Shown: positions 41,815 through 60,947 of the stretch, piece by piece
Position numbering within the stretch: position 1 is the first letter of the stretch
Layout of the letters: the number at the start of each line of letters is the position of its first letter
Source: an uncultured Desulfobacter sp.
Lineage (GTDB): Bacteria > Desulfobacterota > Desulfobacteria > Desulfobacterales > Desulfobacteraceae
Length of the DNA stretch: 64,000 bases
NCBI GenBank assembly: GCA_963665095.1
Contig: OY762069.1
Coordinates: forward strand, 4,960,001-5,024,000
Reading direction: 5' to 3'
Notes under the pieces: model-generated
What the model saw: only the letters and a program-made list of their open reading frames with translations
The model's database searches: none
Told to the model about the DNA's origin: nothing
Position numbers and translations under genes: made by a program

Positions 41815-42233
41815 TGATCAATGTGAGAAACTCGCTTCGCATGCAGAACAATGAGATGGAAATCAATATGAGTCCGCTCATTGATCTGGTGTTTCTGCTG
41901 CTGATTTTTTTCATGGTGACAACCAGCTTTGTGCGGGAGACCGGCATTGATGTGCAGCGGCCCAGCGCCTCATCTGCCACACTTACGGAAAACGGCAATA
42001 TCCTTGTGGCGGTGTCCCAAAACGGCACCATCCATTTTGACGGGCAGCAGATTGACATCCGAAGTGTCCGGGCCCACATCACCCGGGCCCTGGCCCAGAA
42101 TCCGGAAGGATCTGTGGTGATTGTGGCCGATAAGGTCAGCTATACCGGAAAGGTGATCCAGGTCATGGACCAGTGCCGGCTGGCCGGTGCCAAACGGGTG
42201 AGTATTGCCGCCACCCGGGGTGAGTCACCTTAA
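41814..42233 (+). CDS. exbD: ExbD biopolymer transport protein
   Basis: INMSPLIDLVFLLLIFFMVT, VIVAD. Confidence 0.95.
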   Translation: MINVRNSLRMQNNEMEINMSPLIDLVFLLLIFFMVTTSFVRETGIDVQRPSASSATLTENGNILVAVSQNGTIHFDGQQIDIRSVRAHITRALAQNPEGSVVIVADKVSYTGKVIQVMDQCRLAGAKRVSIAATRGESP

Positions 42234-42941: not shown

Positions 42942-42943
42942 AT

Positions 42944-44156: not shown

Positions 44157-45689
44157 TTATCCTGTTTTTTGTGCCGCTTTCCGGCGGTCCCTTTTCCGGC
44201 GGTCCATGGCCGCTGCCAGGCTGGAGAACTGCTGATTGAGCAGAATGGCACCGATAGCCACAGCCAGGGTTTTGGCAATGGATTCCAGAAAGTCGGTTTG
44301 CAGCCTGGAAAAGTTTTCCAGGCTGCCTAATTCAAGGACGCCCACAACCTGTTCCTCATTGATCAGGGGGATAATCAGCAGGCAGCGGGGCAGGCCCATG
44401 ACAAATGAGGATTCAATGTGAATATAATCATCCGGCACATCCGTGATTAATATGCTCTTTTGCTGGTGAACCGCCTGACCTGCAATTCCTTCTCCGGATT
44501 TGAAACTGGTGGCAAAGGCCTTTCCCCGTTTCAGGGCATGGACGGCAGTCAGGGTATATTCTTTTGTTTCATCATCCAGAATAAAAATAGTGCCGATAAC
44601 AGCCTGGCAGTATTCGGCAATGAACTGCAGGGCCTGGCTGGTCATATGGTACATGTTCTGTTTACCTGTGACAATCCGGCTCAGTTCCGTCACCCCGGTT
44701 TTAAACCAGTTCTGATCCGCCCGTTCAATTTCCACCATCTCAAGGGTCTGCAGCACATCATTCAGTGACAGGGCCAAATCGTCATACTCTGATTCGGGTG
44801 TGATTCTATAGCTGAAATTTTTATTTTCCACGGCATCCTGGAGGCTGTTAAAGAGTTTTCGAAACCTTGATACACTTTGCTCCATCTGTTTTTTGAGAAA
44901 TTCCTCCTCTTTTTCCTTAATTTTTATTTTATCAATGGATTCGACCAGCCCGCTGAAAAGAGCATTGATCTCCTTTGTCAGCCGGATAAGCACATAGAAC
45001 ATGCAGCACAGGGCCGTCGCTGCCAGGATGATATTGGATACAGTCAGCGGTATGGGAAGCACCCGTCCCATGGACTGGGCCATCCCCACCCAGCTGTTCA
45101 CCGTAACAAAAAGCATGACGGTTCCAGACAAAAGGCCGGCCACCATAATCAATATCTTCAGGGAGAGGGGTTTTACATCAATGAATTCCGGATGGAGGGA
45201 ATGAAAGTATTCTTCAGTTTTCGTAAATATTTCTGTGAGAAGAACGCTTCCCATCAACGCCCCGAAAGCGATCATGCCTACGGGGGCATAAATGGAAATA
45301 TATTTCATCTCCATATCAAACAGCAGTTCAAATCCCAGAAGTGCTACGCAGATCTGCCAGCAGGAGATGAGAAAGAAGTTGATAAAGGTTCTGATAAAAT
45401 GCCTGGCCAGCAGTTTACCTGCTTCTGTATTATCCGTATATTCCTTAAGCCCCTTGTCAAAGCGAGCCCAGGTCCTGTACTGGATAATCGTTCCGAATAC
45501 CAGGATTGATGAAAGCAGAATGAAAAAGCGAATGTCCGTAACAATTCCGGTGACCTCTTTGCCGGTGAACAGCCCTGTCATGTAGGCAAACGGCGCTAAT
45601 AAAAACTGGATGGCAACGGGGTGGATAAGGGAAAGAATGATCGTATCTTTATACGCTTGTCTGCCAAGCTCTTCCGATGTCGCAGCCAT
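44157..45689 (-). CDS. Multi-TM sensor with HAMP-like and GAF domains and no output domain
   Basis: About 6 TMs; QNWFKTG..GEGIAGQA..PDDYIHIESS..GVLELGS; ends ~25 aa after the GAF; GGAAGGAG RBS before ATG 45689. Confidence 0.85.
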   Translation of the reverse strand: MAATSEELGRQAYKDTIILSLIHPVAIQFLLAPFAYMTGLFTGKEVTGIVTDIRFFILLSSILVFGTIIQYRTWARFDKGLKEYTDNTEAGKLLARHFIRTFINFFLISCWQICVALLGFELLFDMEMKYISIYAPVGMIAFGALMGSVLLTEIFTKTEEYFHSLHPEFIDVKPLSLKILIMVAGLLSGTVMLFVTVNSWVGMAQSMGRVLPIPLTVSNIILAATALCCMFYVLIRLTKEINALFSGLVESIDKIKIKEKEEEFLKKQMEQSVSRFRKLFNSLQDAVENKNFSYRITPESEYDDLALSLNDVLQTLEMVEIERADQNWFKTGVTELSRIVTGKQNMYHMTSQALQFIAEYCQAVIGTIFILDDETKEYTLTAVHALKRGKAFATSFKSGEGIAGQAVHQQKSILITDVPDDYIHIESSFVMGLPRCLLIIPLINEEQVVGVLELGSLENFSRLQTDFLESIAKTLAVAIGAILLNQQFSSLAAAMDRRKRDRRKAAQKTG

Positions 45690-45788
45690 AACCTGGCTCT
45701 CCTTCCAGATAGATTGGCCCCATAGCGGCCAGGGCCGGTAAATGATGGGCAAAGGGCGTTGCTGTAAGTTTAATTCAGGCCGAAAGAT

Positions 45789-48254
45789 TCAGGTAGTTGT
45801 AACTGCCTGCCTTTTTAAGTCAAAGTAAAATTTCACCGCAAGGGAAAGGGATGCAAGCTTTGACCGGGTTGAATCGCCCCTTGAGGTCAGAATCAGCGGC
45901 ATGTCCCCGCATAAAATAACACCGGCCAGGGCAGCGCCTGACTGGGTGGTCAGGGTCTTCCACAGGATGTTGCCTGCATCAATGTCCGGCAGGATCAGGA
46001 CATCGGCATTCCCCTGGATTTTCCCCGTGTAATGCTTTTCCTGGGCAATGGCCGGGTCCATGGCCACATCCAGGGATAAGGGACCCTCCACGATGCAGTC
46101 GTCCCGGTGGGCGAACCCTGCTGCGATCCGTTCGGCCTCAATGGAACTGTCAACGCTTTGATTTACATTTTCAACCGCAGAGACCACGGCGACTTTTGGT
46201 ACTTTGATATTCAGGTTATGCACTACTTTTAATGCATTTTCAAGGATGGCCACCCGTTTTTGTTCATCCGGGTAGGTGTTCAGCGCACCGTCTGAGAAGG
46301 CCAGAAGTTTGTTTCTGGTGGGAATATCCACAATGGCGGTGTGGCTCATCACCTGACCTTTTATGAGGCGTCCGGTTTTTTTCAGGTACCGTATAACCCC
46401 CCGCAGCAGGTCTTCGGTGTGAATGAGCCCTTTCATCAGAATATCCACCCTGCCCTGGTCCAGCAGCTCCACGGCGTCTTCAATGGGATTTTCCGTATCC
46501 ACAATGGTGTAGTTTTCATTGTCAATGACCAGATCGTACTCATAGGCGATCTGGCTGATCTCCTGGAAATCGCCGAGCAGCACAAACCGGGCAATGCGGA
46601 ACTGGCCCTCTTCATTGGCTTTTTTGGCGGCCTGGATTGCTTCTTCGTTATTGGCGCCCACAATGGCAATGGTGGGCGCGTAATTCTCCTTGACCGTGAG
46701 GTAGGCGGCATCAATGATGTCGTCCATGGTGGTCAGAGGCGCGCCTTTTTTCTTGAACCGGATTTCGCGCTTGAAAACCGGCGTGTCAATCAGTTCATCC
46801 TCTTCGTGTCTTTTTTTGCGCAAAGCGTCCCGTTCGGTTTCGTAATCCTTGAGCATCTCAGGGGCAAAAAATCCCTGGATCTGGCCGGCTGCCAGGGCCT
46901 CATGTTCAAAATAGCCGGGCATGACAACCACAGGATAGCGCCCGGCAATATTGTGCCGGACCCGGCGCATCATGTCCGGGTTGCCGGCAAGTCCGCCCGT
47001 GATTGCCAGCACCTTGACGTCCGCCCCGTCCGCTGTGAGTTTAAGTATGCCGCCGGCGATATGTCTGGCAAAAAAGTCCTGGACCAGCCCGATTTTTTTA
47101 CGCTGCACAGGGGTGGCGCCCTGGCGCAGAAATCCGATCATGGCGTTGAAATCATTGGTGCCCGCCAGTGACATAAGGCCGCCGCGGCCATTCAGGGCCT
47201 GCTCCAGATCCCTGATGGAGATATCCTTGTCCTTGATGGCCCGGAACACCCGGTCAATATCCACCGCACCGCTGCGGCTGGTGGATGCAATGCCGGAATA
47301 GGCATCTATGAGCATGGAGACCTTTCCCTGTCTGTGGGCAGCCAGAGAGGTGCCCCCGCCCACATGGGCGGTGACGGCATTGAGTTGTGCCGGGTTCTGG
47401 TTCATCAGCGAGGCCACTATCCGCCATGCGGCCTTGTGGCTCAGGTAGTGGCCGCCGGCACCGTTGCGTTTGACCTTCACAAAACCGGTGATCCGGTCCA
47501 CCAGATCCATTTCATCACACACAAAGGGATCCGTGGTGGTCAGCAGCAGATCTTTCTGGCTGCCTGCGATGCCGGCCAGTTTCATGCCCATGGAGATGCC
47601 CATGTTGCTGGCATGGTCCCGCAGGGGATGGTCAGTCAGATCCCGGACCATCTCCGGATCCACCCGGTAGGTGCCGCCGGGGATGGGTTGGAGAAACCCC
47701 CCCTGGCAGGCAATGCCGTCAAGTGAGGGCAGCTCAATACCGGCCTGTTTCAGGCGGGACGCCACAGCCCTCACCCGGTTTGCCGTACTGTCCTCTTCAT
47801 CCGGCAGCAGGTGGATTTCAAAATGGAGGATCTCTTCCAGGCCCTGGTATACAGCGCCTCTGGTGGATACGGTGCCGGGATTGAGCAGCAGAAATCGTCT
47901 GTTTTCCCGCCTGGCCTCATCTGCAAGGGGTGCCCCTAAAAGTCGTCGCAGCACAGCTGTCTTATCCTGGCTGTTACGCTCCATGGCAAGCATCAGGGTC
48001 AGTGCCCTGCCGGCAATGCCATTGATACGGGCCGAGGGCGTTGATCTGAGCAGCACATCAATGACCGATGCCAGTTCCCCCTGTACCATTGCCGGATCCA
48101 ATGCGCCGGGGTGGCTCTTCATCAATGTTTCAAGTTCGGTCAGCCATGTGTCGCTGGCCACAGCAAGCTGCCGCTCAAACGCAGACATGGAAACACTGAT
48201 TTTGCCGATCTCAGCGATGGTTTCTACTACTTTTTTATGAAGTCCCGCACTCAC
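45789..48254 (-). CDS. Butyrate kinase - phosphate butyryltransferase fusion with N-terminal extension
   Basis: Buk motifs LNPGTVST, GGTY, HASNMG, AHVGGG, GTND, TGGLA; Ptb motifs LMKG, GPLSLD, GNADVLILPDIDAGN, LTSRGDS; single ORF. Confidence 0.9.
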   Translation of the reverse strand: MSAGLHKKVVETIAEIGKISVSMSAFERQLAVASDTWLTELETLMKSHPGALDPAMVQGELASVIDVLLRSTPSARINGIAGRALTLMLAMERNSQDKTAVLRRLLGAPLADEARRENRRFLLLNPGTVSTRGAVYQGLEEILHFEIHLLPDEEDSTANRVRAVASRLKQAGIELPSLDGIACQGGFLQPIPGGTYRVDPEMVRDLTDHPLRDHASNMGISMGMKLAGIAGSQKDLLLTTTDPFVCDEMDLVDRITGFVKVKRNGAGGHYLSHKAAWRIVASLMNQNPAQLNAVTAHVGGGTSLAAHRQGKVSMLIDAYSGIASTSRSGAVDIDRVFRAIKDKDISIRDLEQALNGRGGLMSLAGTNDFNAMIGFLRQGATPVQRKKIGLVQDFFARHIAGGILKLTADGADVKVLAITGGLAGNPDMMRRVRHNIAGRYPVVVMPGYFEHEALAAGQIQGFFAPEMLKDYETERDALRKKRHEEDELIDTPVFKREIRFKKKGAPLTTMDDIIDAAYLTVKENYAPTIAIVGANNEEAIQAAKKANEEGQFRIARFVLLGDFQEISQIAYEYDLVIDNENYTIVDTENPIEDAVELLDQGRVDILMKGLIHTEDLLRGVIRYLKKTGRLIKGQVMSHTAIVDIPTRNKLLAFSDGALNTYPDEQKRVAILENALKVVHNLNIKVPKVAVVSAVENVNQSVDSSIEAERIAAGFAHRDDCIVEGPLSLDVAMDPAIAQEKHYTGKIQGNADVLILPDIDAGNILWKTLTTQSGAALAGVILCGDMPLILTSRGDSTRSKLASLSLAVKFYFDLKRQAVTTT

Positions 48255-48275
48255 TTTTTAATACTTTCCTTTTAC

Positions 48276-50141
48276 TTAGACGCCTGTCTGGTTTCCGGCT
48301 GTGCTTTGGGGCGCATCAACACTGTCAGAAACATTGTCGGAGGCGATGCGCCGCAGCTGGGTCCTGAACAGTTTGCCTGTGGCTGTTCTGGGAAGCTGAT
48401 CGGTGAATATTATCTTTTCAGGCACTGCAAAATGGCCGATTTTTTCTGCAATATGGGTGTTGATTTGTGTGATATAGCGCTCTTTATTCTCAACATGGCC
48501 CCTGGCCACCACAAAGAGCACCGCGTCCTGCCCGGCCGGTCCGGAGCCACTGATAATAGCGGCTTCATCAATAAACATAAGGGATGACAGCACGGTTTCG
48601 ATTAAAGAGGCGCCCAGGGTCTGGCCCTTGACCTTGATCACGTCATCCAGCCGGCCCATGAACCAGAAAAAACCGTTTTTGTCCGACCGGACCCCGTCGT
48701 AGGTGAGGAAGTGCCCTGGAAACCGGGAAAAATATGTCTTCTTAAAATGTTTTGATGTGCCAAAGGTGGCCTTTGCCATGGCCGGCCAGGATTTATCAAA
48801 CACCAGATTGCCGCTGATGTTGGTTTTGCAGGCCTCACCAAAATCGCTCATGATTAAGGGCTCGACACCGGGGGCGCCAAATCCAAGCGAGCCGGGCCGG
48901 TTCAGTTCAGGGGTGGGATATGCGTGCAGGAGCGCTGTGCCGCTTTTGGCCTGCACCCACATGTTGACCACCCGTTCCGGGGCCTCCACCAGGGTTTCCC
49001 CGGCATAGCTGACCAGCCGGGGAGGCAGCGCGTCACTGCAGCAGGCAAGGATGGAGAACCGCCGCTCTGTGTTGAGCCGGCCGCTCCCCAGTTGATCCCG
49101 TATGTCTGATATCAGGGACGGCCGGCAGAGCATGGCCGGGTTGCTGTGCTCATGTAAAATGGTTTCAAGGGTGCCGGTATCAACGGCCTCTTCATTTGGT
49201 CTGTTTTCAATGAAGATAATACCGGTGCCGTTTGTTAAGGGTCCCCACAGCCCGTAGGCATGGGCCGGAGCTTTGGAGATGTCCAGGGTGTTGACGATCA
49301 TTTCCGGCTGGTCCAGGGTCAGTGTCTGATGAAAAATAGCATCAAAGGAGGCATGGGCCTGGACCAGAAATCCTGCCGTGGAAAAAACAGAACCCACATG
49401 TTTGTTGCCGGCCAGACGATTTTCATAGATGGCAAACAGGGGCAGATCTGCCGGTGGAGAGGCAGGGGCCAGGCCTGTGGGATCAGCATTTGCCGTGTAT
49501 GCTTCCAGGGTGTCAAGTCCCTCAAGTGCTCCGCCGGCTATGATCAGTGGGTGTGACGGGAGCAGGCGGTGAACACGTCTTGCATGGTCTGCGTCTTCTT
49601 TAAATGCAGCCCGGTTACCCATAATCACAAGTTTGCTACGCGATGCGGTGACATCTTCGGCCACAACCGAAGCCGGCAGGTGGCGCCCCACAGGCAGATA
49701 GGTGATACCAAGCCAGGCGGCGGCCAGCGCACAGATGACAAATTCAGGTCCACCGGCAAGGTTTAATGCAATGCAGTCTCCTGTTAAGAGGCCATTCTGG
49801 CGAAAAGCGGCTGCCAGTATTAACGCCTTTTCCTTCAGTTCATTGAAGCTCAGGCAGGTCTTTGTACCTGACTGGTGATAACAGATCAGGGCCTTTTTTC
49901 CCCCCAGGCCTTTTTCAATGATCCTGTGAAGGGCATTTTCAGCCGCATTGATCCGGCCGTCACAGAACCAGGATGCCCTGGGTATGGATAAATCCTCCTG
50001 AACAACACAGGTAAAATCATTCTGCCATTGCAGTTGCCTGGCCTGGCCGGCCCAGAACTGCTCACGGTGGTCAAGGGTCTGTCTGTGAAATCGGCAAAAC
50101 GCATCAAGACGCGCAGGTATGTTATGACTAAGGTCTTCCAT
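48276..50141 (-). CDS. Acetyl-CoA synthetase-like protein with degenerate adenylation motifs
   Basis: ACAS N-terminus (FWAGQA..WFCDGRINA), GRLDDVI, LPRTATGK; P-loop replaced by YENRLAGNKHVG. Confidence 0.88.
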   Translation of the reverse strand: MEDLSHNIPARLDAFCRFHRQTLDHREQFWAGQARQLQWQNDFTCVVQEDLSIPRASWFCDGRINAAENALHRIIEKGLGGKKALICYHQSGTKTCLSFNELKEKALILAAAFRQNGLLTGDCIALNLAGGPEFVICALAAAWLGITYLPVGRHLPASVVAEDVTASRSKLVIMGNRAAFKEDADHARRVHRLLPSHPLIIAGGALEGLDTLEAYTANADPTGLAPASPPADLPLFAIYENRLAGNKHVGSVFSTAGFLVQAHASFDAIFHQTLTLDQPEMIVNTLDISKAPAHAYGLWGPLTNGTGIIFIENRPNEEAVDTGTLETILHEHSNPAMLCRPSLISDIRDQLGSGRLNTERRFSILACCSDALPPRLVSYAGETLVEAPERVVNMWVQAKSGTALLHAYPTPELNRPGSLGFGAPGVEPLIMSDFGEACKTNISGNLVFDKSWPAMAKATFGTSKHFKKTYFSRFPGHFLTYDGVRSDKNGFFWFMGRLDDVIKVKGQTLGASLIETVLSSLMFIDEAAIISGSGPAGQDAVLFVVARGHVENKERYITQINTHIAEKIGHFAVPEKIIFTDQLPRTATGKLFRTQLRRIASDNVSDSVDAPQSTAGNQTGV

Positions 50142-50347
50142 GGTATAGCCCCCGGATCAATCCAATCAATGAGCCTTATTATCTGTTTTGGGTTACTCAT
50201 TTGCCAAACGTACCGGCAACATTGTCTGTTAGATTAAATACCCCCCCAATAAGTGTCAACAGGAAACCCAAAGATATTTCCCCTCTAATGGTGTTTCGTA
50301 AGACATGAGTTGACTTTTTTGAAATTTATTTTTAAAATATTTACTTA

Positions 50348-50731
50348 ATGAAACAAAATGCGACAAGATATGATACGAATCGAAAAATCAGGCAGGTTCT
50401 TGTCAGTCACAGTACAGACCTCAGCCATCTCTTTTTCTCATTTTCCGGAAAAACTGCCCGGTTTTCAGGGCGTTTCTTAAAGACATCCGGGCGTGAGATG
50501 AAATTTGAAGAGGTGGAGGCCCTGTGCAAAAAACTGACAAGTCTTTCAGCGGTTCGGTTTCTCAGCTTTGACATGGAAGACTGGGTAATTTCTGCCGGCC
50601 TGGGGTCAATGGATATTGTCAAGAAATCAGCCGTCTCTTCTGCTGCTGCCCAGGAAACAAGAAAAAACCTTCATATTAATTCTCCGGAACTGGTTGATGA
50701 CGTTCTCAGTGACCAGTTCGGGGAGAACTGA
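50348..50731 (+). CDS. Hypothetical protein
   Basis: 127-aa ORF with ATG start upstream of the hybrid kinase; no recognised motif. Confidence 0.7.
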   Translation: MKQNATRYDTNRKIRQVLVSHSTDLSHLFFSFSGKTARFSGRFLKTSGREMKFEEVEALCKKLTSLSAVRFLSFDMEDWVISAGLGSMDIVKKSAVSSAAAQETRKNLHINSPELVDDVLSDQFGEN

Positions 50732-50935
50732 ATTCGTTGATTTTTTAATTAAAAAAAATTCAGGTTATATACGATTTCTTTCAATAATCCGGATGCGGCG
50801 TAACGGCCGGATCTCTTGGCATTCTGTTATGGAGCCAAACCGGATTTTTATTAAAAGGCTTGACGAAAAAAATGGTAAGGAAGTATCTTCTGAAAAGAAT
50901 CATGTCTGTTTTTCACTGTTAAAGAGGGAAGATCA

Positions 50936-53900
50936 ATGTTTTCGCAGATCAAAAGAAGGATCGCATTTAAACTTGCATGCATCATTCTGTTTACGGTGAC
51001 GGCCATTGGTGCGGCAGCCATGTTTGTTATGACCAGAGACAACAAGGCAACCCTGACCGAATATTTAAATGTTTCCCTGTCAGATGCCGTCAAGTTTACA
51101 TCCCTTGCTTATTCAGAGCCTCTCTGGGTGTATAATGATGATGAAATCGCCCGCCTGAACAATATTGTTTTGCAGAACAGGTTCGTTGTTGCTGTTAATA
51201 TTTTTAATATGGAAGCATTTGTCAGTGGTGCTGAAAATCAGGCGCTGGAAACTGAACAAACTCGTCTTCTCAAGACGCCTTATAAAATATCCGGGGATAG
51301 TCAGGATATAAAAAAAATATCCGGGGATATCCTTCGCAACGGCGAAACCATTGGACGGTTTGAACTTTTTTATACAGAAACGCTGATTGATCAGGCAGTT
51401 GTTCGTTTTAACAACAAGATGCTGATCTCTTATCTTGTGACCGGTGCCATCATCGTGTGTGCCGTGCTGCTTGTTGTTATTACGACCCTGACAAAACCGA
51501 TCATTGAACTGGCCCGCATTGTCAGAGAACTGACACAGTCCAAAAATTTTTCAAAACCCATAGACAAAAAGACCCGCAAAGACGAAATCGGGATCCTGTT
51601 TAACGGGTTTGTCGATATGATCAACCAGGTGCAGGCCAAGGAGAATGAGCGTGAAGGCCTTCAGCTGGAAATGGAAAAACGGATCTCCCGGTTCAAGGAC
51701 GTCTTTCACTCTTTGGAAGAGGCCGTAGACAATGAAGAGTATTCCCACAGGATCCGTCTGGACTCCGAAGATGATGAGCTGGTTCCCTCCTTAAATAAAA
51801 TGCTTGAAACCCTTGAAAATGCAGATATTTTAACAAAAAATCAAAACTGGATCAAAAACGGGCAGGCTGAGTTAAGCAATATCATTGGGGGTGAGCAGAG
51901 CATTGTGAAACTGGCCAGCAAGGCCATTAATTTTATCGCCACATATGCAGGTGCCCATGTGGGAACCATATTTATTGAAGACGATAAATCAAAGGATTTT
52001 TATCTGGTTGCAAGCTACGCGTTCAAAGTGAGGAAGGGGTTTACAAATCGGTTTGTGCCGGGAGAAGGACTGCCGGGCCAGGCTGTGTTTGAGAAAAAAA
52101 CCATTCTGTATACCCATGTTCCTGAAGATTATATGAACATTGAGTCCTCCCTGGGCCATACCTTTCCCCATGCCATTTTCGTCATACCCCTAATCTACGA
52201 AGGAGATGTGAAGGGGGTGATTGAACTGGGGTCTCTGGAAGTATTTTCCTCCACTAAAATGGATTTTCTGGAGTCTGTGGCTGAAACACTGGCTGTTGCC
52301 ATTAATGCGGCCATGTTCAACGATCAGCTCTCCGCGCTGTTTAAACAGACCAAGGCCCAGGCAGATGAACTGCAGAAGCAGCAGCTGGAACTTAAAGCAT
52401 CCAACCAGGAGCTGGAAGAGCAGACTAAAATTTTAAGAGAGTCGGAAGAAAAGCTTCAGTCCCAGCAGGAAGAGCTTCAGGCAAGCAATGAAGAGCTTGA
52501 GGAAAAAACCGAGATGCTTGAAGCCCAGAAGGCTGAGATCGAAAAGAAAAACGATATCCTTGTGCAGAAGCAAAAGGAGATTGAGGAAAAGGCCGAGCAG
52601 TTAAAAATTGAGACAAAATATAAATCCGAGTTCCTTGCCAACATGTCCCATGAGTTGAGAACGCCTTTAAACAGTCTGTTGATCCTTGCCAATATGCTGG
52701 CGGAAAATGAAGAACAGAATCTGAACGAAGATCAGATTGAAAGCGCGGCTTCCATCTACAGAAGCGGCCAGAACCTGCTGCACCTTATCAATGATATCCT
52801 TGACCTGTCCAAGATTGAGGCCAAAAAGATTGAACTCAGCCTTTCCAGGATTGAGCTCAGTGAACTGGGAAAAAATTTCAGGACAGAATTTCTGCACATG
52901 GCAAAGGAGAAAAATCTTGATTTTATCGTGACAGCTGAAGAGAATCTGCCTGAATCAATAATTACCGATATTCACCGGCTTGAGCAGATTATCAGAAACC
53001 TGATCGGCAATGCCATGAAGTTTACCGAGCAGGGGGCCATCACCCTGAATTTCAGCCGGCCTGATCCGGCCTTTAAATTCTCCAGGGATGATCTTGTCCA
53101 TGAAACGTGTGTTGCTGTCTCTGTAAGTGATACTGGAGAGGGGATTCCTGAGGATAAAATCAAGCTTATTTTTGAGGCGTTCAAACAGGTGGACGGATCC
53201 ATCAGCCGCAGACACGGCGGTACCGGACTTGGCCTGTCCATTTCCAAAGAGCTTGCCGCCCTCCTTGGCGGAGAGCTTCGTGCCACCAGTGTGTACGGCC
53301 AGGGCTCTACCTTTACCATCTATATCCCTGAGCAGCTTGAAGGTGAGCTATCCCCTGAGTCCAGTGCCCCGGCACCCCGGCGGCCTGTGCCTGTAAAAAA
53401 AGCCCCGCCTGTTTTCAAGGAACCGTCACAGGTACCGGAAACACCATCCGGGAGCGACCAGGTACAGGATTCTTCGGCAAAAGCACCGGATTCCGCCCGG
53501 AAAAAGAAGATGGTTTTAATTATTGAGGATGATCCTGAGTTCTCCAGTGTGCTTGAAAGCTATTTTACAAAGAATGAATATACGCCGCTGCTTGCACAGG
53601 ACGGGGAAACAGGTATTAAAATGGCTGTTGAACAGAGACCTGCCGCCATTATCCTTGATATCGGCCTGCCCGGCATTGACGGATGGACTGTTCTAAGTGA
53701 ACTGAAAAAAAATACAGAGACCCGGCATATCCCTGTCCACATTATGAGCGGGTTTGACGCGCATAACCAGGGTATTAAAAATGGTGCCGTGGGGTATCTG
53801 ACCAAGCCTGTTTCCCAGGAGGGGCTGAATCAGGCGTTGGAAAAAATTGAAAGCGTGCTTTCAGGCGATGTGAAAAATTTATTAATTGTTGAAGATGATG

Positions 53901-54673
53901 GAGACCTTCTGCTGTCTGTCATCAAGCTGATGGAGACCCATAATATAAAGACAGTAGCCGCAAAAACAGGCGAGGAGGCCTTGAGCCTGCTTAAGTCAGA
54001 CCGGTTTGAATGTATGATCCTTGACATCGGCCTGCCCGATATCACCGGATTTGAACTGCTGGACAGAATCGAGGCAGATCCCGACATGGAAATGATGCCT
54101 GTGATTGTCTTCACAGGCCGGGAATTGACAACCGAAGAAGCCCATGAGCTTGAAAAGTATTCCTCAAGCATTGTGCTGAAAAATGATGTTTCCATGGAAC
54201 GGCTCCTTGATGAAACCGCCCTGTTTATTCATCGGGTGGAAAGCGATATACCGGAGGCCCGCGAGCCGGCCAACGGTAATGAGCAGGCCCCTGAAGGCTC
54301 CCTTGAGGGGAAAAAGGTGATGGTGGTGGACGATGACATGAGAAATGCCTTTGCCCTGAATAAATTTCTCAAATCAAAAGGTATGGAAGTATCCATTGCC
54401 AACAACGGAGAAAAAGCGTTGGCGCTTCTTGATAATGAGGCCCCGCCGGATATCGTTTTGATGGACATCATGATGCCGGTGATGGACGGGTATGAGGCAA
54501 TCAAGCGGATCCGGGCCCAGGAACGCTTTAACAACATGCCTGTCCTTGCTCTGACAGCAAAGGCTATGGCCTCTGACCGGGATGAGTGCATTAAATGCGG
54601 GGCCAATGATTATCTGTCAAAACCCCTTGATACGACAAAATTATTGACCATGCTCAGGGTATGGCTGTATTGA
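50936..54673 (+). CDS. Hybrid sensor histidine kinase (2TM-periplasmic-HAMP-GAF-coiled coil-HisKA-HATPase-3xREC)
   Basis: MSHELRTPL, NLIGNAMKFT, DTGEGI, GGTGLGL; three receivers (ILDIGLP twice, LMDIMMP). Confidence 0.96.
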   Translation: MFSQIKRRIAFKLACIILFTVTAIGAAAMFVMTRDNKATLTEYLNVSLSDAVKFTSLAYSEPLWVYNDDEIARLNNIVLQNRFVVAVNIFNMEAFVSGAENQALETEQTRLLKTPYKISGDSQDIKKISGDILRNGETIGRFELFYTETLIDQAVVRFNNKMLISYLVTGAIIVCAVLLVVITTLTKPIIELARIVRELTQSKNFSKPIDKKTRKDEIGILFNGFVDMINQVQAKENEREGLQLEMEKRISRFKDVFHSLEEAVDNEEYSHRIRLDSEDDELVPSLNKMLETLENADILTKNQNWIKNGQAELSNIIGGEQSIVKLASKAINFIATYAGAHVGTIFIEDDKSKDFYLVASYAFKVRKGFTNRFVPGEGLPGQAVFEKKTILYTHVPEDYMNIESSLGHTFPHAIFVIPLIYEGDVKGVIELGSLEVFSSTKMDFLESVAETLAVAINAAMFNDQLSALFKQTKAQADELQKQQLELKASNQELEEQTKILRESEEKLQSQQEELQASNEELEEKTEMLEAQKAEIEKKNDILVQKQKEIEEKAEQLKIETKYKSEFLANMSHELRTPLNSLLILANMLAENEEQNLNEDQIESAASIYRSGQNLLHLINDILDLSKIEAKKIELSLSRIELSELGKNFRTEFLHMAKEKNLDFIVTAEENLPESIITDIHRLEQIIRNLIGNAMKFTEQGAITLNFSRPDPAFKFSRDDLVHETCVAVSVSDTGEGIPEDKIKLIFEAFKQVDGSISRRHGGTGLGLSISKELAALLGGELRATSVYGQGSTFTIYIPEQLEGELSPESSAPAPRRPVPVKKAPPVFKEPSQVPETPSGSDQVQDSSAKAPDSARKKKMVLIIEDDPEFSSVLESYFTKNEYTPLLAQDGETGIKMAVEQRPAAIILDIGLPGIDGWTVLSELKKNTETRHIPVHIMSGFDAHNQGIKNGAVGYLTKPVSQEGLNQALEKIESVLSGDVKNLLIVEDDGDLLLSVIKLMETHNIKTVAAKTGEEALSLLKSDRFECMILDIGLPDITGFELLDRIEADPDMEMMPVIVFTGRELTTEEAHELEKYSSSIVLKNDVSMERLLDETALFIHRVESDIPEAREPANGNEQAPEGSLEGKKVMVVDDDMRNAFALNKFLKSKGMEVSIANNGEKALALLDNEAPPDIVLMDIMMPVMDGYEAIKRIRAQERFNNMPVLALTAKAMASDRDECIKCGANDYLSKPLDTTKLLTMLRVWLY

Positions 54674-54735
54674 CCATAAAGATGATAAGGACATATTGTA
54701 CATAATGACTGCGTTGATATTCCATACCGATTGCC

Positions 54736-55575
54736 ATGACTGATGAAGAAATTGAAATCGCATTACTGATAAAGGCGATACATTTAAAATATGGTTACGA
54801 TTTTTCAAATTACGCGGAAGCCTCGCTTACAAGGCGGATAAAAAAAAACCTTCAGGAAACAGGTGCCCGACGGATTATGGACATGATACCTAAAATTATT
54901 GATGATCCTCAATACTTTAAGGACTTTCTTGTCAATATGTCCGTCAACGTCACGGAGATGTTTCGTAATCCTTTGTTTTATGCATCCATCAGAGAGAAAG
55001 TAGTGCCGTATCTTAAGACCTATCCGTTTATCAAGATCTGGTCAGCCGGCACATCAACCGGCCTTGAGGCATACTCCCTGGCGATCCTGCTCAAAGAGGA
55101 AGGCCTGTATGACAATTCAACCATCTATGCCACGGACTTTGATGATGATGTACTGGCCATTGCCCAGAAAGGTATTTATTCGGCAGCCATGATGAAGGAG
55201 AGTACCAGAAACTACCAGAAGGGAGGGGGCAGGGAGTCCTTTGCCAGATATTTTCATGCCGATTATGATTCTGTTATTTTTAAGGCATCATTAAAGCAGA
55301 ATATTGTTTTTGCCAACCATAACCTGGTCACGGACGGGGTGTTTGGTGAGATGAACCTTATTTTTTGCCGGAACGTACTCATTTATTTTAACAAGGTACT
55401 TCAGGACAGGGTGCTTCAGTTATTTTACGACAGCCTGAGAAACAACGGATTTCTATGCCTTGGGGAAAAGGAAACCGTTGAATTCTCACCCCTTACCGGC
55501 GCTTTTACGCCCATTGACCGGAAAAGGAAAATATACCAGAAAAAATATCGGATTCCGGCAAGGTCGGTCCAATGA
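54736..55575 (+). CDS. cheR: Protein-glutamate O-methyltransferase CheR
   Basis: YGYDF, VNVTEMFR, KIWSAGTSTGLEAYS, CRNVLIYF. Confidence 0.95.
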   Translation: MTDEEIEIALLIKAIHLKYGYDFSNYAEASLTRRIKKNLQETGARRIMDMIPKIIDDPQYFKDFLVNMSVNVTEMFRNPLFYASIREKVVPYLKTYPFIKIWSAGTSTGLEAYSLAILLKEEGLYDNSTIYATDFDDDVLAIAQKGIYSAAMMKESTRNYQKGGGRESFARYFHADYDSVIFKASLKQNIVFANHNLVTDGVFGEMNLIFCRNVLIYFNKVLQDRVLQLFYDSLRNNGFLCLGEKETVEFSPLTGAFTPIDRKRKIYQKKYRIPARSVQ

Positions 55576-56159
55576 AACCCACTTCTAAAGCCATTGTTAT
55601 CGGGGTTTCGGCAGGCGGTTTTAAAGCCCTTCATCTCCTGCTGCCTTTATTTGGGAAAGATATTGGTATCCCCATCATGGTTGTTCAGCACCGGGGGACA
55701 GACGACGACGCCTGGCTGGCTGCCTCCCTGAATAAAAAATGCAGCCTTAAGGTCAAAGAGGCCATGGACAAGGAACCGGTTGTCCCCGGCACCATTTATC
55801 TGGCCCCTTCAGGCTATCACCTGCTGGTGGAAAAGGACTTTTCCCTGGCATTGTCAGTGGATGAACCGGTCTGCTACTCACGGCCATCCATTGATGTTTT
55901 GTTTGAGTCCGCAGCTGAGGCCTATGGCCTTGATTTGATCGGAATTGTTCTTACAGGCGCAAATTCTGACGGAAGTGACGGCATTATCGCCATAAAGGCC
56001 AAGGGCGGCTATACCATTGCCCAGGATCCTGCTACGGCTGAAGTGGATTATATGCCCAGAGCAGCCATCAAAACCAATGCGGTTGATACGGTGCTGGCGT
56101 TGGAGAAAATTCCGCCGTTTGTAGAAAAATTACTGGAGGTCACCCATGGAAGAGACTGA
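55572..56159 (+). CDS. cheB: CheB methylesterase (stand-alone, no REC domain)
   Basis: GVSAGG, VQHR, SRPSIDVLFESAA, LTGANSDG (Ser-His-Asp triad intact). Confidence 0.95.
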   Translation: MKPTSKAIVIGVSAGGFKALHLLLPLFGKDIGIPIMVVQHRGTDDDAWLAASLNKKCSLKVKEAMDKEPVVPGTIYLAPSGYHLLVEKDFSLALSVDEPVCYSRPSIDVLFESAAEAYGLDLIGIVLTGANSDGSDGIIAIKAKGGYTIAQDPATAEVDYMPRAAIKTNAVDTVLALEKIPPFVEKLLEVTHGRD

Positions 56160-57858
56160 CTATCGCCCCTCCATCCCCATCGTGGATGATGCACAGGCGC
56201 ATGCCGAAATGCCCAAGGAAGGCTCACCGCCTAAAATTCTCATTGTGGATGATGTCCCGGAAAACCTCTTTGTCCTGCAGAAAATTTTGAAAAAACTGGA
56301 CTGTGAAGTGATCAAGGCAAGTTCCGGCAATGAAGCCCTGACCCATATCCTTGATCACGAGTTTGCCCTGATCATTCTTGATGTCCAGATGCCTGAGATG
56401 GACGGGTATGAAGTGGCGGATATCCTTCAATCCGATGATAAGACCGGGAATATCCCCATTATTTTTGTCACGGCTATTGACCGGGATGACGCCAAGGAGA
56501 TGAAGGGATACGGTACCGGGGCTGTGGATTTTATCTTCAAGCCGCTGAATGAATTCATCCTGGTCAGCAAGGTAAAGGTTTTTCTTGAATCCCATAAAAT
56601 TAAAAGCGGGCTCGAAGATATTGTGGCCCAGCGCACCTATGCCTTAAGTAAAAGCAATCAGGATCTCAAGGACCAGATTGAAAAGAATATCAAATTTGCC
56701 AACGACTTGGAAAAGGCCCGGTCCTACCTTGCCAATGTCATTAATTCAATCTCCTCTTCTCTGATCAGTGTGGATGAACAATGCAATATCATAGACCTTA
56801 ACGAAGCCGCGTATACTGTCTGCGGCCTTGAAAAAGCAGAGGTCCAGGGAAAACCGCTGGCAGAGGTGTTTCCTTTTTACGGCGAGCTTGCCGCAGATGT
56901 CTCCAGTGCCATTACCTCGGACAGTCCCATTGAAAAAAACCGCACCACCATCTACATCGCAGGAAAACTGCACATCAATAATTTTGCCATTTACCCGCTT
57001 AAGTTCAGCAAAATTAAAGGCGCGGTCATCCGGGTGGACGATGTGACGGAACGGGCCAAAATTGATGACATGGTAATCCAGACGGAAAAGATGCTTTCCA
57101 TCGGTGATCTGGCCACCGGCATGGCCACTGAGATTAATACGCCTTTGGCCGGTATCATTCAGAATGTTCAGGTGATCAATAACCGGCTGAACAATAAACT
57201 GCCTGCAAACGAGCGGGCGGCCGAGGAGAGCGGCACCTCCTTTGAGGCCATACAGAAGTACATGGAAAACCGCGGTATTCTGCGCATGATGGATGCCGTG
57301 CTTGAGTCCGGGAAACGGGCTACGCAGATCGTTGACAATATGATCAGTTTCAGCCGGAAAAGTGAGGGCTCCGGCGAAAAAGAGGATCTGGCAGATATCA
57401 TTGATAAAACCATTGAGCTTGCCTACAGTGACTACAACCTGACCCATACTTGCGATTTCAAGGCCATTGAGATTGAAAAGAGTTACCAGGAGGATATGCC
57501 CCATGTGCTGTGCCAGACCAACAAGATGCAGCAGGTGGTGCTCAATATTTTGAAAAATGCAGCCCAGGCCATGGCGGAGAAAACCGATTACGGTGATGAA
57601 AAAAAGCGGCTTGTTGTCAGGCTTGAGACCACATCTGACAACTATGCGGCCATTACCATCCAGGATAACGGTCCGGGTATGGAAGCCGATGTCGCCAAAA
57701 AGATATTTGAACCTTTTTTTACAACGAAAAAGGTCGGTGCCGGTCTTGGACTGGCTATCTCCTATTATATTATCAGCGATGATCACAATGGCCTTCTGGA
57801 TGTTGAAACCGAGCCTGGTAAAGGGGCTGCCCTGATTATCAAGCTGCCATTGACTTAG
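56146..57858 (+). CDS. REC-PAS-histidine-kinase-like protein lacking the phospho-acceptor His
   Basis: REC (IVDD..LDVQMP..KP), PAS, H-box reads MATEINTPL, HATPase boxes NAAQA, DNGPG, FFTTK, GLGL. Confidence 0.9.
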   Translation: MEETDYRPSIPIVDDAQAHAEMPKEGSPPKILIVDDVPENLFVLQKILKKLDCEVIKASSGNEALTHILDHEFALIILDVQMPEMDGYEVADILQSDDKTGNIPIIFVTAIDRDDAKEMKGYGTGAVDFIFKPLNEFILVSKVKVFLESHKIKSGLEDIVAQRTYALSKSNQDLKDQIEKNIKFANDLEKARSYLANVINSISSSLISVDEQCNIIDLNEAAYTVCGLEKAEVQGKPLAEVFPFYGELAADVSSAITSDSPIEKNRTTIYIAGKLHINNFAIYPLKFSKIKGAVIRVDDVTERAKIDDMVIQTEKMLSIGDLATGMATEINTPLAGIIQNVQVINNRLNNKLPANERAAEESGTSFEAIQKYMENRGILRMMDAVLESGKRATQIVDNMISFSRKSEGSGEKEDLADIIDKTIELAYSDYNLTHTCDFKAIEIEKSYQEDMPHVLCQTNKMQQVVLNILKNAAQAMAEKTDYGDEKKRLVVRLETTSDNYAAITIQDNGPGMEADVAKKIFEPFFTTKKVGAGLGLAISYYIISDDHNGLLDVETEPGKGAALIIKLPLT

Positions 57859-57952
57859 GCGGTCTGCCTGCTGGTTCAGATCAGCAGAATTAAAAGATGC
57901 CGAACTTCCGGGCGGGAAAACGGCCGGTATAATTCATGACAAAGGAGCTATC

Positions 57953-58942
57953 GTGAGGGGTATCAGATACATACTACCCATCGTATTGATTGCAATGGCC
58001 CTGACGGCAAATGTATCTGCCAGGGAATTTAAAAAGGTGGCTTTTCTGCGGTATCCGCTGCCTCCAATGGATTTTAACGATGTGGTGATCGGGTTTAAAA
58101 AGGTTATGGAAGATAACGGATATGTTGAGGGGAAAAATATTGAATACATTGACAGAATAACGAAGACAGATGATCTTGTATCCGTCACCGAGGTGAATGA
58201 TTTTACAGCCGCCTGGAAAGACAAGGTGGATATGTTTGTCTCCTGCGGCTGGGTTTCTATGTATTCCCGCAAGATTTTAAAGGATTCCAAAACGCCCCAG
58301 CTTTTTGTGCCTGTTCTTAAACGGGTGGCTTACCAGTTGATTCCTTCCCTGGAAGAGGGATCTGGTTCAAATATTTCAGGTGTTTACCTCTCCTATCCTG
58401 CGGAGAAGCTGCTCAAACTCCTTAAACTGGCCCTGCCTGATGCAAAAAAATACGGGCTGTGCTGGCATTCCCGGGTACCTGCAGATATGATTTTCAAACA
58501 GTCGTTTGACGAGCTGCAATCCACCATGGGGGTTAAAATCCTTTATTTTGATCTCAATGACGGGGTGGATGCGGTGATGGAACAGTTAAGCGCCTCAAAA
58601 GTAGATGCATTTGGCGGGTGTGTCAGTTTTCGCAAGCCGCGTTATTCAAAACTGTTTCATATGAATATTCCAGTGGTGTCAGCCAAGCTGGATCATGAAG
58701 ATACCGTTCAGATGATTGGCAGCAATGAACTGGTGGGATTCTGGAATGTGTTTACATCCGGCGGAGAGCAGGCAGCTGAGATGACCCTTGATATCTGGAA
58801 TGGACGTATAACCATTGAAAAATGCCTGCCCCGGCGGATTCGGACCCAGGTGATTTATGTGAATTCCGCTGCAGCCAGGCGTCTGGGAATCCGGATTCCA
58901 GCAGCGCTGATGAGAATTGCCAATGTTATTTACAACAGATAG
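57953..58942 (+). CDS. ABC-type (ABC_sub_bind-like) periplasmic substrate-binding protein with no adjacent transporter
   Basis: Signal peptide, GYVEGKNIEY, NISGV, GEQAA, YVNSAAARRLGIRIP. Confidence 0.85.
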   Translation: MRGIRYILPIVLIAMALTANVSAREFKKVAFLRYPLPPMDFNDVVIGFKKVMEDNGYVEGKNIEYIDRITKTDDLVSVTEVNDFTAAWKDKVDMFVSCGWVSMYSRKILKDSKTPQLFVPVLKRVAYQLIPSLEEGSGSNISGVYLSYPAEKLLKLLKLALPDAKKYGLCWHSRVPADMIFKQSFDELQSTMGVKILYFDLNDGVDAVMEQLSASKVDAFGGCVSFRKPRYSKLFHMNIPVVSAKLDHEDTVQMIGSNELVGFWNVFTSGGEQAAEMTLDIWNGRITIEKCLPRRIRTQVIYVNSAAARRLGIRIPAALMRIANVIYNR

Positions 58943-58982
58943 TTGCATCGTGGCTCTATTATAACAGGATGGAGAGTTAAGG

Positions 58983-60947
58983 ATGTCTGACAGAAAAAAC
59001 CGTTTGATGGGGCGGGGGTACACAATCAATATCAATACCAAAATCCGTCTGGGATTTTTTCTGACGGTCCTGCCCCTGTTTTTTATTGTTGGTGCCACCT
59101 ACTTCCCGTTAAGGAATATTGTTTTTGAAAACAGTGCGCGTCAGATTGTTCTTATCAGCAGCAGCGGACAGGAACAGTTCAGCTCTTTCTTAAGAACTTC
59201 CTATCTGTTTTTCCGGGAGTGGGTTGAAGGGGACGTGTTTCGCCTGGCCACAGAGTTTGACGCCTGGGATGACCTTAAGTATCAGATGGATTCCATTCAG
59301 AGGGTGCATAAGGAGTTCCCCATTATGCTGATGGTGAATAAACGCGGCGTTATTATTCAGGAGAGCCGCCTGTTTAAACGTAATAGCAGCGGGACCACAC
59401 TGATCGGGCAGCCCCTTCCCTATTTTAAAGATATCTCAGGCATTGCCAGCGGCCCTGCTTTTGTTGTTGACAGTGGCCCTGAACTGCCCAACCGTGATAA
59501 CGCATCTTTACTTTTGTTTGTTCATCAGACCAAGGATTCAATTGAGAATGTCAACGGCCATTTTTTAAGTTTTCTGGACCTCTCCTCCCTTAAAGGCATC
59601 TGCAATGAAATTTTGAAAGAACTTAAGTCTTCGTCCCTGCCCGGCAGTCATGTGGCCGTGGTTAATATGAATTCTAACAAAGTGATCAGCTATGCTGCCC
59701 ATGAGGATAAAGATGGAAATGACACCTTTAAGCTGCCTGTGACGGCACAGACGCTTGCGAAAGAAGCCCGGCCGGGGCAGATAAAAGTGTTTAACACTGA
59801 AACGGGGAATCAGCATCTCCTCTATCTGCCCCTGGATTTAGAATCTGACAGTGATAAAAAGAAAAACAAATGCGCCCTGTGCCTGGTGCTTTGCGTCCAC
59901 GAAGAGGAGATCATGGCCAAGGTGTCCGGTACGTTGTTTTTGAGTATGGGGATTGCCGGCATTGGATTGGTTCTGGCCCTGGTGTTCAGTGCCCTGACCG
60001 TAAAAATGCTGACCTCTCCCATTACTCAGCTGGTTCAGGTGCTTCAGCAGTATACGGGCGGAGACTCTTCAGTCAGAGCGGAAGTGAAAAGCCGGGATGA
60101 GATCGGTTATTTTGCCCAGGAGTTTAATTCAATGCTTGAAAAAATTGAGGCCTCCTCCCTGGCCCTTCAGGAAAGTGAGGCCAGGTATCGAAATTTTTTC
60201 AACAGCCTTCAGAAAGCCGTCAATTCAAAAAATTACAAGTTTCGCTTTGATTTGCCGCACAATGAAGAGGATGATCTGGTGGCCTCTCTGAATGCCATGC
60301 TGGAAACCCTTGAAAATGCGGATTTAAAAAGCCGTGAGGAGGACTGGATCAAGACCGGTGTGAACCAGCTCAGTGAACAGATCAGCGGGAACTACAAGCT
60401 GGATGAACTCTGCCTTAAGGCCATTACCTTTATTGCCCGGTACATGGAGGCGCTTACCGGCACCATGTTTATCCGCCGGCTGGAAGATGACCACAGTGGT
60501 GCGTTTTATGAGCTGGTGGCTGCATATGCATATCAGCATAACAAAAATGAACGCTACGGCTACAGGGAAAAAGAGGGCCTTTTAGGCCAGGTGGTGAAGG
60601 AGAAAAAACCCCTCCACCTGACAGATATTCCTGTGAATTATCTGAAGATTTCCTCTTCTTTAGGGTCTGCCTCTCCCAGTGATGTGCTGATTTTCCCCTT
60701 GATTTACGAGGGCGAAGTTCAGGGTGTGGTGGAACTTGCCGCTAATTTCAGCCTGGAGAAAAAGCATCTGAATCTGGCAGACCAGCTTGGCAAGGTGATT
60801 GGTGTGGCGGTTTACTCGGCCATTGTCAATGACCAGTTCAAGAAGCAGTCTGAAAATCTGTTACAGCAGCAGAAAAATTTGAAAAAAGCCAATCGTGAGC
60901 TTGAAGAACAGAATCTTCTGCTGCAGGAGGTGGAATCCGAGGATTGA
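58983..60947 (+). CDS. Membrane sensor (periplasmic Cache-like domain, HAMP, GAF, short coiled coil) with no kinase domain
   Basis: 2 TMs, HAMP (PITQL..DEIGYFAQEFNSM), DWIKTG..EGLLGQV..GVVELA; ends KKANRELEEQNLLLQEVESED. Confidence 0.88.
   Translation: MSDRKNRLMGRGYTININTKIRLGFFLTVLPLFFIVGATYFPLRNIVFENSARQIVLISSSGQEQFSSFLRTSYLFFREWVEGDVFRLATEFDAWDDLKYQMDSIQRVHKEFPIMLMVNKRGVIIQESRLFKRNSSGTTLIGQPLPYFKDISGIASGPAFVVDSGPELPNRDNASLLLFVHQTKDSIENVNGHFLSFLDLSSLKGICNEILKELKSSSLPGSHVAVVNMNSNKVISYAAHEDKDGNDTFKLPVTAQTLAKEARPGQIKVFNTETGNQHLLYLPLDLESDSDKKKNKCALCLVLCVHEEEIMAKVSGTLFLSMGIAGIGLVLALVFSALTVKMLTSPITQLVQVLQQYTGGDSSVRAEVKSRDEIGYFAQEFNSMLEKIEASSLALQESEARYRNFFNSLQKAVNSKNYKFRFDLPHNEEDDLVASLNAMLETLENADLKSREEDWIKTGVNQLSEQISGNYKLDELCLKAITFIARYMEALTGTMFIRRLEDDHSGAFYELVAAYAYQHNKNERYGYREKEGLLGQVVKEKKPLHLTDIPVNYLKISSSLGSASPSDVLIFPLIYEGEVQGVVELAANFSLEKKHLNLADQLGKVIGVAVYSAIVNDQFKKQSENLLQQQKNLKKANRELEEQNLLLQEVESED

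Follow-up and report, generated by a model that had tools for sequence, protein, structure and literature searches.

A 64,000-nucleotide stretch of an uncultured Desulfobacter sp. (assembly GCA_963665095.1, contig OY762069.1, positions 4,960,001 to 5,024,000; hereafter the window) carries two divergent gene runs that an earlier note, made from the sequence alone, had described as one short-chain fatty-acid sensing system. The comparative analysis reported here argues for two independent modules that have become neighbors, a reading to which we give a probability of about 0.75. The first is a signaling cassette of the MAC2/RsbK type, with one hybrid histidine kinase, CheR and CheB; the second is a pair of genes for an Acs-like probable pseudoenzyme (pseudo-Acs) and a Buk-Ptb fusion. 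The type of cassette is already known, and what is new on it is a set of kinase-less paralogs of the receptor half of the kinase, including gafL and gafR (the twins); the pair is a separate lead. As far as the comparative data reach, the fatty-acid sensing locus is a coincidence of gene order.

If the conserved twins are true co-receptors, they would break the limit of one receptor per kinase in MAC systems and offer a present-day model of how separate chemoreceptors emerged from MAC kinases. One kinase, CheR, CheB and four twins would form a small, testable set for examining how receptors separated from the kinase. The pair is unrelated to this question; that its two genes so strictly accompany each other in several phyla suggests a control point of acyl-CoA/acyl-phosphate metabolism in anaerobes that has yet to be described. 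A literature search, with most subscription papers and supplements outside its reach, returned nothing on kinase-less MAC paralogs, on Buk2 Arg74 or on fused Buk-Ptb paired with an Acs-like protein.

Linkage of the two gene runs

The earlier note had proposed that the kinase combines sensing of a periplasmic ligand with a reading of acyl-CoA/acyl-phosphate status through the Acs-like and Buk-Ptb proteins, and had named gene-neighborhood comparison as a check. In that comparison, positional co-occurrence of the acs-like/buk-ptb genes with kinase/cheRB genes was absent from the other genomes with readable DNA. The Acs-like gene was found directly upstream of Buk-Ptb in 20/20 loci of relatives, and the kinase, cheR, cheB, binding protein and GAF proteins were found in none of these 20. 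Among 161 family genomes, 25 carry both genes of the pair, none carries just one of them, and the two are adjacent every time. A scan of all species genomes yielded 47 Buk-Ptb loci, from Desulfobacteraceae, Latescibacterota, Myxococcota, Krumholzibacteriota and unplaced Deltaproteobacteria; 7 of them (L082-L088) repeat stretches mapped among the first 20 and were excluded. The Acs-like gene was directly upstream in 36 of the remaining 40 mapped loci, three others being cut by a contig end and one not being a fusion. CheR/CheB matches were found in 0/60 pair loci (20 + 40, with a few genomes counted twice and flanks of 7 to 15 kb, some cut by contig ends).

The distribution of the kinase is likewise distinct from that of the pair. 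The clade of this kinase was detected in 21/161 family genomes (E below 1e-70), of which just the genome of the window (G000) and two relatives (G035 and G143) also have the pair; in the relatives, the pair lies 4.5 Mb (G035) and 2.2 Mb (G143) from the kinase. The pair occurs without this kinase clade in 22/25 family genomes, and the kinase occurs without the pair in 18/21, several of the genomes being incomplete. A TPR gene and a small open reading frame (ORF) that flank the pair in the window also flank it in two relatives each, without signaling genes there; thus, the pair is presumably the older resident and the signaling genes are likely newcomers. A difference in GC content (0.55 to 0.56 versus 0.46 to 0.48) was counted for the independence of the modules, as weak evidence only.

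Several observations weigh against independence. Proteins corresponding to gafR, two gafL and Buk-Ptb (86, 67, 61 and 89% identity, respectively) of one close relative are each assigned to a 42,821-base contig, its DNA unseen. This relative probably keeps the joint arrangement, which fits shared descent and also selection for linkage; shared gene order at 86 to 89% identity is what descent alone gives. In the window, a gap of 99 bases separates Buk-Ptb from the co-oriented gafL, and because no terminator-like site was seen on their strand, read-through from Buk-Ptb into gafL is possible. Another CheR of this kind occurs elsewhere in 19/24 same-genus genomes (E ≤ 1e-30, fused forms included), and since many genomes with the pair hold such a CheR, the pair might act with one in trans. 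A 60% identical paralog of the binding protein (L142, G000:C1:3600503-3601588) immediately precedes an acyl-CoA dehydrogenase gene, which hints that the ligands may be acyl or amino-acid compounds. Finally, the Gln found in place of a conserved Arg in all 28 Desulfobacteraceae Buk rows would suit a noncatalytic role for that protein in a joint system. Against these points stand the lack of CheR/CheB in the 60 loci, the largely separate sets of genomes, the distances in G035 and G143, and the spread of the pair over phyla, where it is accompanied by a different third gene. A single fatty-acid sensing system is, on balance, very unlikely, and the core of that proposal was rejected by the comparison of synteny and distribution.

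The kinase cassette and its kinase-less paralogs

The HisKA and HATPase domains of the hybrid kinase are intact within the receptor protein itself, with the phosphoacceptor His572 present (Pfam and motif analysis). The coil between GAF and HisKA includes one site (EELQAS, residues 512-517, positions 52469-52486) that matches [EQ][EQ]xxA[ST], which we take to be the chemoreceptor methylation consensus and applied to the kinase coil. Such a site is present in 20/21 kinases of the clade versus 0/17 kinase-less rows. The sole kinase of the clade without it (G077, locus L070) sits in an operon that lacks cheR/cheB (n = 1); in this protein, both candidate methylation sites are without the consensus Ala. 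The correspondence is imperfect, as two kinases retain the site without an adjacent cheR, which counts against a strict tie of site to enzyme. A second GAF-coil hybrid kinase of the same genome (G000:C1:4383135-4387238) has three REC domains and is followed by a REC gene, with no cheR/cheB; its coil is without the consensus site.

Kinases of this sort are followed directly by cheR in 25 related loci, and in most of these cheB and a REC protein come next. The earlier statement that kinase-cheR-cheB-REC cassettes occur in other bacteria holds, with Pseudomonas putida cfc and Bacillus cereus RsbK/RsbM as comparable cases. The absence of MCP and CheW genes was also borne out for the locus, not for the genome: none of the 33 MCP-domain and 10 CheW-domain matches of the genome falls in the window. 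No MCP-CheA-CheW chemosensory cluster was thus indicated by MCP or CheW matches within the window, CheA and stand-alone CheY not having been searched separately. Three other CheR and CheB homologs are present elsewhere in the genome. Judged by its predicted domains and motifs, the cassette is a member of the known MAC2/RsbK kind on every feature tested (HisKA/HATPase, Glx-rich coil, separate CheR/CheB, no MCP/CheW).

MAC2 kinases with separate CheB/CheR were defined by Wuichet and Zhulin (cited from the consulted parts of bioRxiv 10.1101/2022.05.07.491037 and of MiST 3.0, PMC6943060). MAC systems are seen as intermediates between two-component and chemotaxis signaling, and the consulted part of the 2022 survey describes them as experimentally uncharacterized, with one receptor per kinase (bioRxiv 10.1101/2022.05.07.491037). 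The cassette resembles MAC2 in uniting receptor and kinase in one protein, in its adjacent CheR/CheB genes and in needing no MCP, CheA or CheW. It differs, as far as these descriptions go, in having several kinase-less paralogs of the receptor half, whereas a one-to-one relation of receptor and kinase is described for MAC2. The RsbK-RsbM-RsbY system of B. cereus, compared by the description in the consulted part of its source, shares a membrane hybrid kinase and methylation of a signaling helix by a neighboring CheR-type enzyme; RsbM has been shown experimentally to methylate the RsbK S-helix, and 127 RsbK-like kinases in 10 phyla are cited (PMC4574943), whereas methylation in the present cassette is predicted. 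As described there, RsbM has no partner methylesterase, RsbK has one REC, and the output is a PP2C phosphatase and sigma-B; in contrast, CheB, three RECs, a His-less kinase and kinase-less twins are present here. The P. putida cfcABCDE genes likewise encode a hybrid kinase, then a CheR/CheB pair that plays no part in chemotaxis, and a REC protein; their output is the diguanylate cyclase CfcR, and the consulted part of that report describes neither kinase-less paralogs nor a binding protein (PMC4951495).

The REC-PAS protein encoded after cheB had been noted as a kinase without its phospho-His, and this was upheld: Thr328 stands at that position, with codon ACT and no difference listed there in contigs of three studies. 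The further claim that a pseudokinase is part of the system fell, as the change is local. The phospho-His is kept in 13/14 orthologs and replaced by Gln in one (two further rows, non-kinase proteins sharing the N-terminal half only, were dropped from the count), and a conserved pseudokinase was rejected on this ground. The ExxT motif, which we take to be a phosphatase signature, is retained. The His-less protein likely serves the cassette as an output or a phosphatase, and its residual motifs suggest a phosphate sink or a phosphatase. The proposed association of the binding protein with a sensor was substantiated, since binding-protein genes commonly precede such sensors in relatives: they do so for kinases in six relatives, with PF04392 in four (MAC2 kinases) and PF13458 in two.

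The twins repeat the membrane-linker-GAF half of the kinase and end before its predicted methylation site. GafL has about six predicted membrane helices (by hydropathy, with no Pfam match), a helical linker and a GAF domain, its sole Pfam match; it is 49% identical to kinase residues 217-468 and has 5 orthologs of 399 to 505 aa (61 to 67% identity). GafR has 6 orthologs of 640 to 655 aa (58 to 86% identity; the search was limited to 359 to 1145 aa), and its gene directly follows cheB in G035 and G143. The description of gafR as a Cache-like sensor is weakly backed: dCache_1 matches exist, at E values of 0.14 in gafR and 0.061 and 0.0044 in orthologs, all below the Pfam cutoff. In total, G000 holds four kinase-less copies of this half (gafL, gafR, 6226376-6227836 and 4884654-4886078). 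The two distant copies, G000:C1:6226376-6227836 and 4884654-4886078, are 52% and 45% identical to the whole N-terminal half of the kinase, and both (L140, L141) adjoin an SBP_bac_3 binding-protein gene. G035 and G143 have an additional dCache_1-GAF kinase-less form of 722 and 739 aa, respectively.

In trees (quick or FastTree), gafL, the two distant copies and the dCache form make up one clade (support 91 to 92) that is sister to the G000/G035/G143 kinases (99), and gafR belongs to a separate clade (100), with the kinase-less forms nested among these kinases. The trees confirm the earlier observation that the leftward run ends in a paralog of the input module of the kinase. A single origin of the kinase-less forms was rejected in an approximately unbiased (AU) test (p = 0.003, for a group tested after the first tree was seen). 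On this phylogenetic evidence, kinase-less forms have at least two origins. Each of the 17 kinase-less rows in the clade ends before the methylation site.

The possibility that the twins are truncation relics of the kinase, transient and with no signaling role, draws on their narrow spread, as kinase-less forms were found in 3/161 family genomes (E ≤ 1e-42) and 2/401 phylum genomes (E ≤ 1e-24). When metagenomes were scanned with the gafR alignment, one locus, an unrelated one, came up among 376 stretches. Some copies sit on long branches, and a 668-aa kinase-less GAF gene (L048:8445-10451, G026), which breaks off inside the coil, resembles a deletion remnant. The short GAF proteins of G033 (two) and G012 run to the end of their contigs and were left out of the kinase-less count. 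The sequences themselves point away from decay. Between G035 and G143, at dS of 0.24 to 0.40, the ratio of nonsynonymous to synonymous substitution rates (dN/dS; own Nei-Gojobori script, twin values leaving out gafL) was 0.21 (gafR) and 0.23 for twins and 0.15 for their linker-GAF part, compared with 0.17 for the kinase and 0.12 for cheR. Twin orthologs at 58 to 69% identity are full length, free of stops and alike in where they end, and different copies have gained new input domains (the six-helix membrane domain and dCache_1). Relics are thus improbable, and the kinase-less genes of the earlier note stand as conserved genes (equal-length orthologs, purifying selection); the role it gave them, as co-receptors of a methylation-adapted kinase, stays hypothetical.

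Functional twins might also signal elsewhere than to the MAC2 kinase, with the GAF domain or tail binding another protein or a small molecule, as independent one-component receptors. Two of the four G000 copies, and one each in G035 and G143, are indeed far from the cassette, and the tails differ between the gafL and gafR types. Yet the twins derive from this kinase clade and co-occur with it (within the E ≤ 1e-42 search, kinase-less forms are confined to genomes with the closest full kinase), gafR follows cheB or the cassette in three genomes, and the only other conserved neighbors seen are binding proteins. We therefore consider independent receptors unlikely. The twins are likely co-receptors or decoy subunits of the kinase, as their relationship to it suggests: having different inputs, a conserved dimerization half and no output of their own, they would most simply act on the parent kinase. 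Two kinds of gene are recorded separately. A 429-aa CHASE5-GAF gene (L053:7631-8920, G055) overlaps the beginning of a GAF hybrid kinase gene and is a lone example, belonging to a different family, and three distant kinase-less membrane-GAF proteins (P0014, P0015, P0016) retain a Glx-rich coil with the methylation consensus.

The kinase is likely adapted through methylation of its own coiled coil by CheR and CheB. In the proposed mechanism, a ligand would be sensed by the binding protein or the periplasmic domain, and the signal would pass through HAMP, linker and GAF into the Glx-rich coil. There, Glu512/513 would be methylated by CheR and demethylated by the receiver-less CheB, setting kinase activity, and phosphate would be passed to the RECs of the kinase itself and to the REC of the His-less protein (sink or phosphatase). 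Because the twins keep the membrane-linker-GAF dimerization half and have no methylation site or transmitter, the kinase would be their only plausible output. Within this module, a twin may dimerize with one kinase subunit by way of the linker and GAF domain, giving an incomplete HisKA dimer and ligand-dependent damping; we hold this to be plausible, at somewhat less than even odds. Lateral clustering of homodimers is the less probable alternative, and the rest of the probability falls to action on another target or none.

The Acs-like protein and the Buk-Ptb fusion

The Acs-like protein had been called a pseudoenzyme, and sequence comparison makes this probable: the P-loop is lost across the family, and the score against the acetate-CoA ligase model (TIGR02188) is 265.8 bits, below the NCBIfam cutoff of 724.95. 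With respect to motif roles, we take A3 to be the P-loop, A5 to contribute a Glu, the Asp and Arg to form the AMP site and the A10 Lys to be the acetylation site. The P-loop of Salmonella Acs aligns to a noncanonical stretch, and a canonical P-loop (A3) was found in 0/51 Acs-like rows. The equivalent of A5 Glu417 is Lys399 here and is variable across the family. Asp482, Arg497 and Lys590 (A7, A8 and A10) correspond to Asp500, Arg515 and Lys609 of Salmonella Acs and are invariant in 34 rows, Lys590 being kept in 50/51. Hence the protein resembles Salmonella Acs (2p20) over its full length, with these three residues kept, and differs from it in lacking the P-loop and in being an obligate neighbor of Buk-Ptb. 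In the tree, the Acs-like proteins make up a clade distinct from the other ligases of the genome and from canonical Acs (support 100), and their dN/dS between close relatives is 0.08 to 0.16.

In an AlphaFold2 model (pLDDT 75.7), the Buk-Ptb fusion consists of a helical segment (1-117) followed by butyrate kinase and Ptb parts. The Buk part matches the Thermotoga maritima Buk2 fold (Z 33.0, root-mean-square deviation 2.7, 327 aligned), an ASKHA fold; it scores 179 against a 289-bit cutoff and keeps most active-site motifs, with Gln184 as the equivalent of Arg74. We take Buk2 Arg74 to be a catalytic residue; its equivalent is Gln in 28/28 Desulfobacteraceae rows and Arg in 30 others. The Ptb part matches Ptb/Pta folds, has C-terminal motifs invariant in 29 rows and scores 245, below the equivalog cutoff of 410.5, so that it is predicted to be of the Pta/Ptb type with its substrate not fixed. 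The N-terminal domain (1-117) has no family assignment, gave no usable Atlas match and was barely probed in the whole-model fold search. Compared with the clostridial Ptb-Buk pathway (7vg9, 1x9j), the folds and most catalytic motifs are shared, and the differences are the fusion of Buk and Ptb behind a new helical domain and the Arg74-to-Gln change in Desulfobacteraceae. Named relatives of the fusion at 77 to 81% identity are from Desulfobacter and Desulfospira.

The pair loci (L021-L040, L089-L127 and window positions 45789-50141) show an obligate two-gene unit over several phyla. Outside the family, a gene for an acetyl-CoA hydrolase/transferase-GNAT protein lies directly downstream in 14/31 fusion loci; G000 has four CoA-hydrolase-GNAT genes, unlinked to the pair. 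Because a ligase that appears dead keeps its nucleotide site and acetylation Lys, always adjoins an acyl-phosphate enzyme and often an acetyltransferase, the pseudo-Acs most likely regulates that enzyme, and the pair is likely a pseudoenzyme-controlled module that handles acyl-CoA independently of the cassette. A parallel is offered by the pseudoenzyme regulators of Thermus thermophilus (ADLP-CoA transferase, GdhA and APRTh; consulted part of bioRxiv 10.1101/2025.10.31.685773), where an inactive homolog encoded beside an acyl-CoA enzyme senses a cofactor and regulates that enzyme, with acetylation as a second layer; the folds are unrelated, and the likeness is one of analogy only. The main rival is a partial catalytic role of the Acs-like protein. 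Three Acs-like rows keep part of the P-loop, which counts against the pseudoenzyme reading. The specific proposal that the protein forms no acyl-adenylate, binds AMP/CoA-type ligands, is acetylated on Lys590 and acts within the Buk-Ptb acyl-phosphate pathway as a subunit that regulates it has, in our estimate, a little less than an even chance.

The fullest form of the two-module reading is more tentative, and the odds are clearly against all of it holding together. It would have the twins as true co-receptors on one methylation-adapted MAC2 kinase through linker and GAF, in a network of many receptors and one kinase built twice by duplication and truncation, and, independently, the pseudo-Acs as an AMP/acetylation-gated Buk-Ptb subunit across phyla.

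Gene content, sequence checks and flanking genes

Pfam and NCBIfam scans of the window recovered all ten genes of the two divergent runs, with ORFs, strands, coordinates and domains as the earlier note had them (Table 1).

Table 1. Features of the locus, in window positions
Feature	Position	Strand	Description
gafL, kinase-less sensor	44157..45752	-	531-aa ORF; probable start ATG 45689 (510 aa); ends before methylation coil
Buk-Ptb fusion, 821 aa	45789..48254	-	All-helical N-terminal domain (~1-117), Buk, Ptb
Acs-like probable pseudoenzyme, 621 aa	48276..50141	-	Obligate upstream partner of Buk-Ptb
Gap between divergent runs, 206 bp	50142..50347	.	Two best sigma-70-like matches, one per strand, 10/12 each; consensus match only
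127-aa conserved hypothetical protein	50348..50731	+	First ORF of rightward run; not a kinase-cassette member
Hybrid kinase, 1245 aa	50936..54673	+	2 membrane helices, 130-aa periplasmic domain, HAMP, linker, GAF, Glx-rich coil, HisKA (His572), HATPase, 3 REC
Coiled coil GAF-to-HisKA, residues 459-571 (113 residues), Glx-rich	52310..52648	+	Predicted CheR target
CheR methyltransferase	54736..55575	+	Pfam; S-adenosylmethionine-site motifs present
Receiver-less CheB methylesterase	55572..56159	+	Ser-His-Asp motifs; 4-base overlap with cheR, 14-base overlap with next gene
REC-PAS-HisKA-HATPase, His328Thr	56146..57858	+	N, G1, F, G2 boxes and REC Asp kept; codon ACT at 57127
PF04392 (TrpX-like) solute-binding protein	57953..58942	+	Pfam; 40 bases before gafR
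gafR, kinase-less sensor, 654 aa	58983..60947	+	2 membrane helices, ~275-aa periplasmic domain, HAMP, linker, GAF, short coil without methylation consensus

Contigs from public runs of four studies covered the locus without indels, one run possibly being the source of the window itself. The Thr codon of the His-less kinase was covered by contigs from three studies, with one difference each in the piece compared and none listed at the codon. The convergent genes end 19 bases from the end of gafL and 0 bases from that of gafR, so no kinase remnant can follow either. Assembly error or frameshift as the cause of the truncations or of the His loss was ruled out by the indel-free contigs, the coverage of the Thr codon and the gene ends. 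The promoter matches between the runs are weak evidence only.

The 127-aa protein has 10 homologs (45 to 72% identity) in 160 genomes, patchy in the family and with varying neighbors; its Atlas matches are unnamed clusters only, with no known family. The homologs adjoin an Acs-like gene in 2/10 cases and a kinase-cheR cassette in 0/10 (within 1.5 kb), and membership of this ORF in the cassette was rejected on the latter count. To the left, convergent on gafL, positions 39021-44137 hold a TPR protein gene (Pfam) and an ExbB/ExbD/TonB-like run (judged by eye). To the right lies a fumarase C gene (60948-62348), the stop codon of which abuts the gafR stop with no gap, followed by a probable aldehyde dehydrogenase gene (62594-64000).

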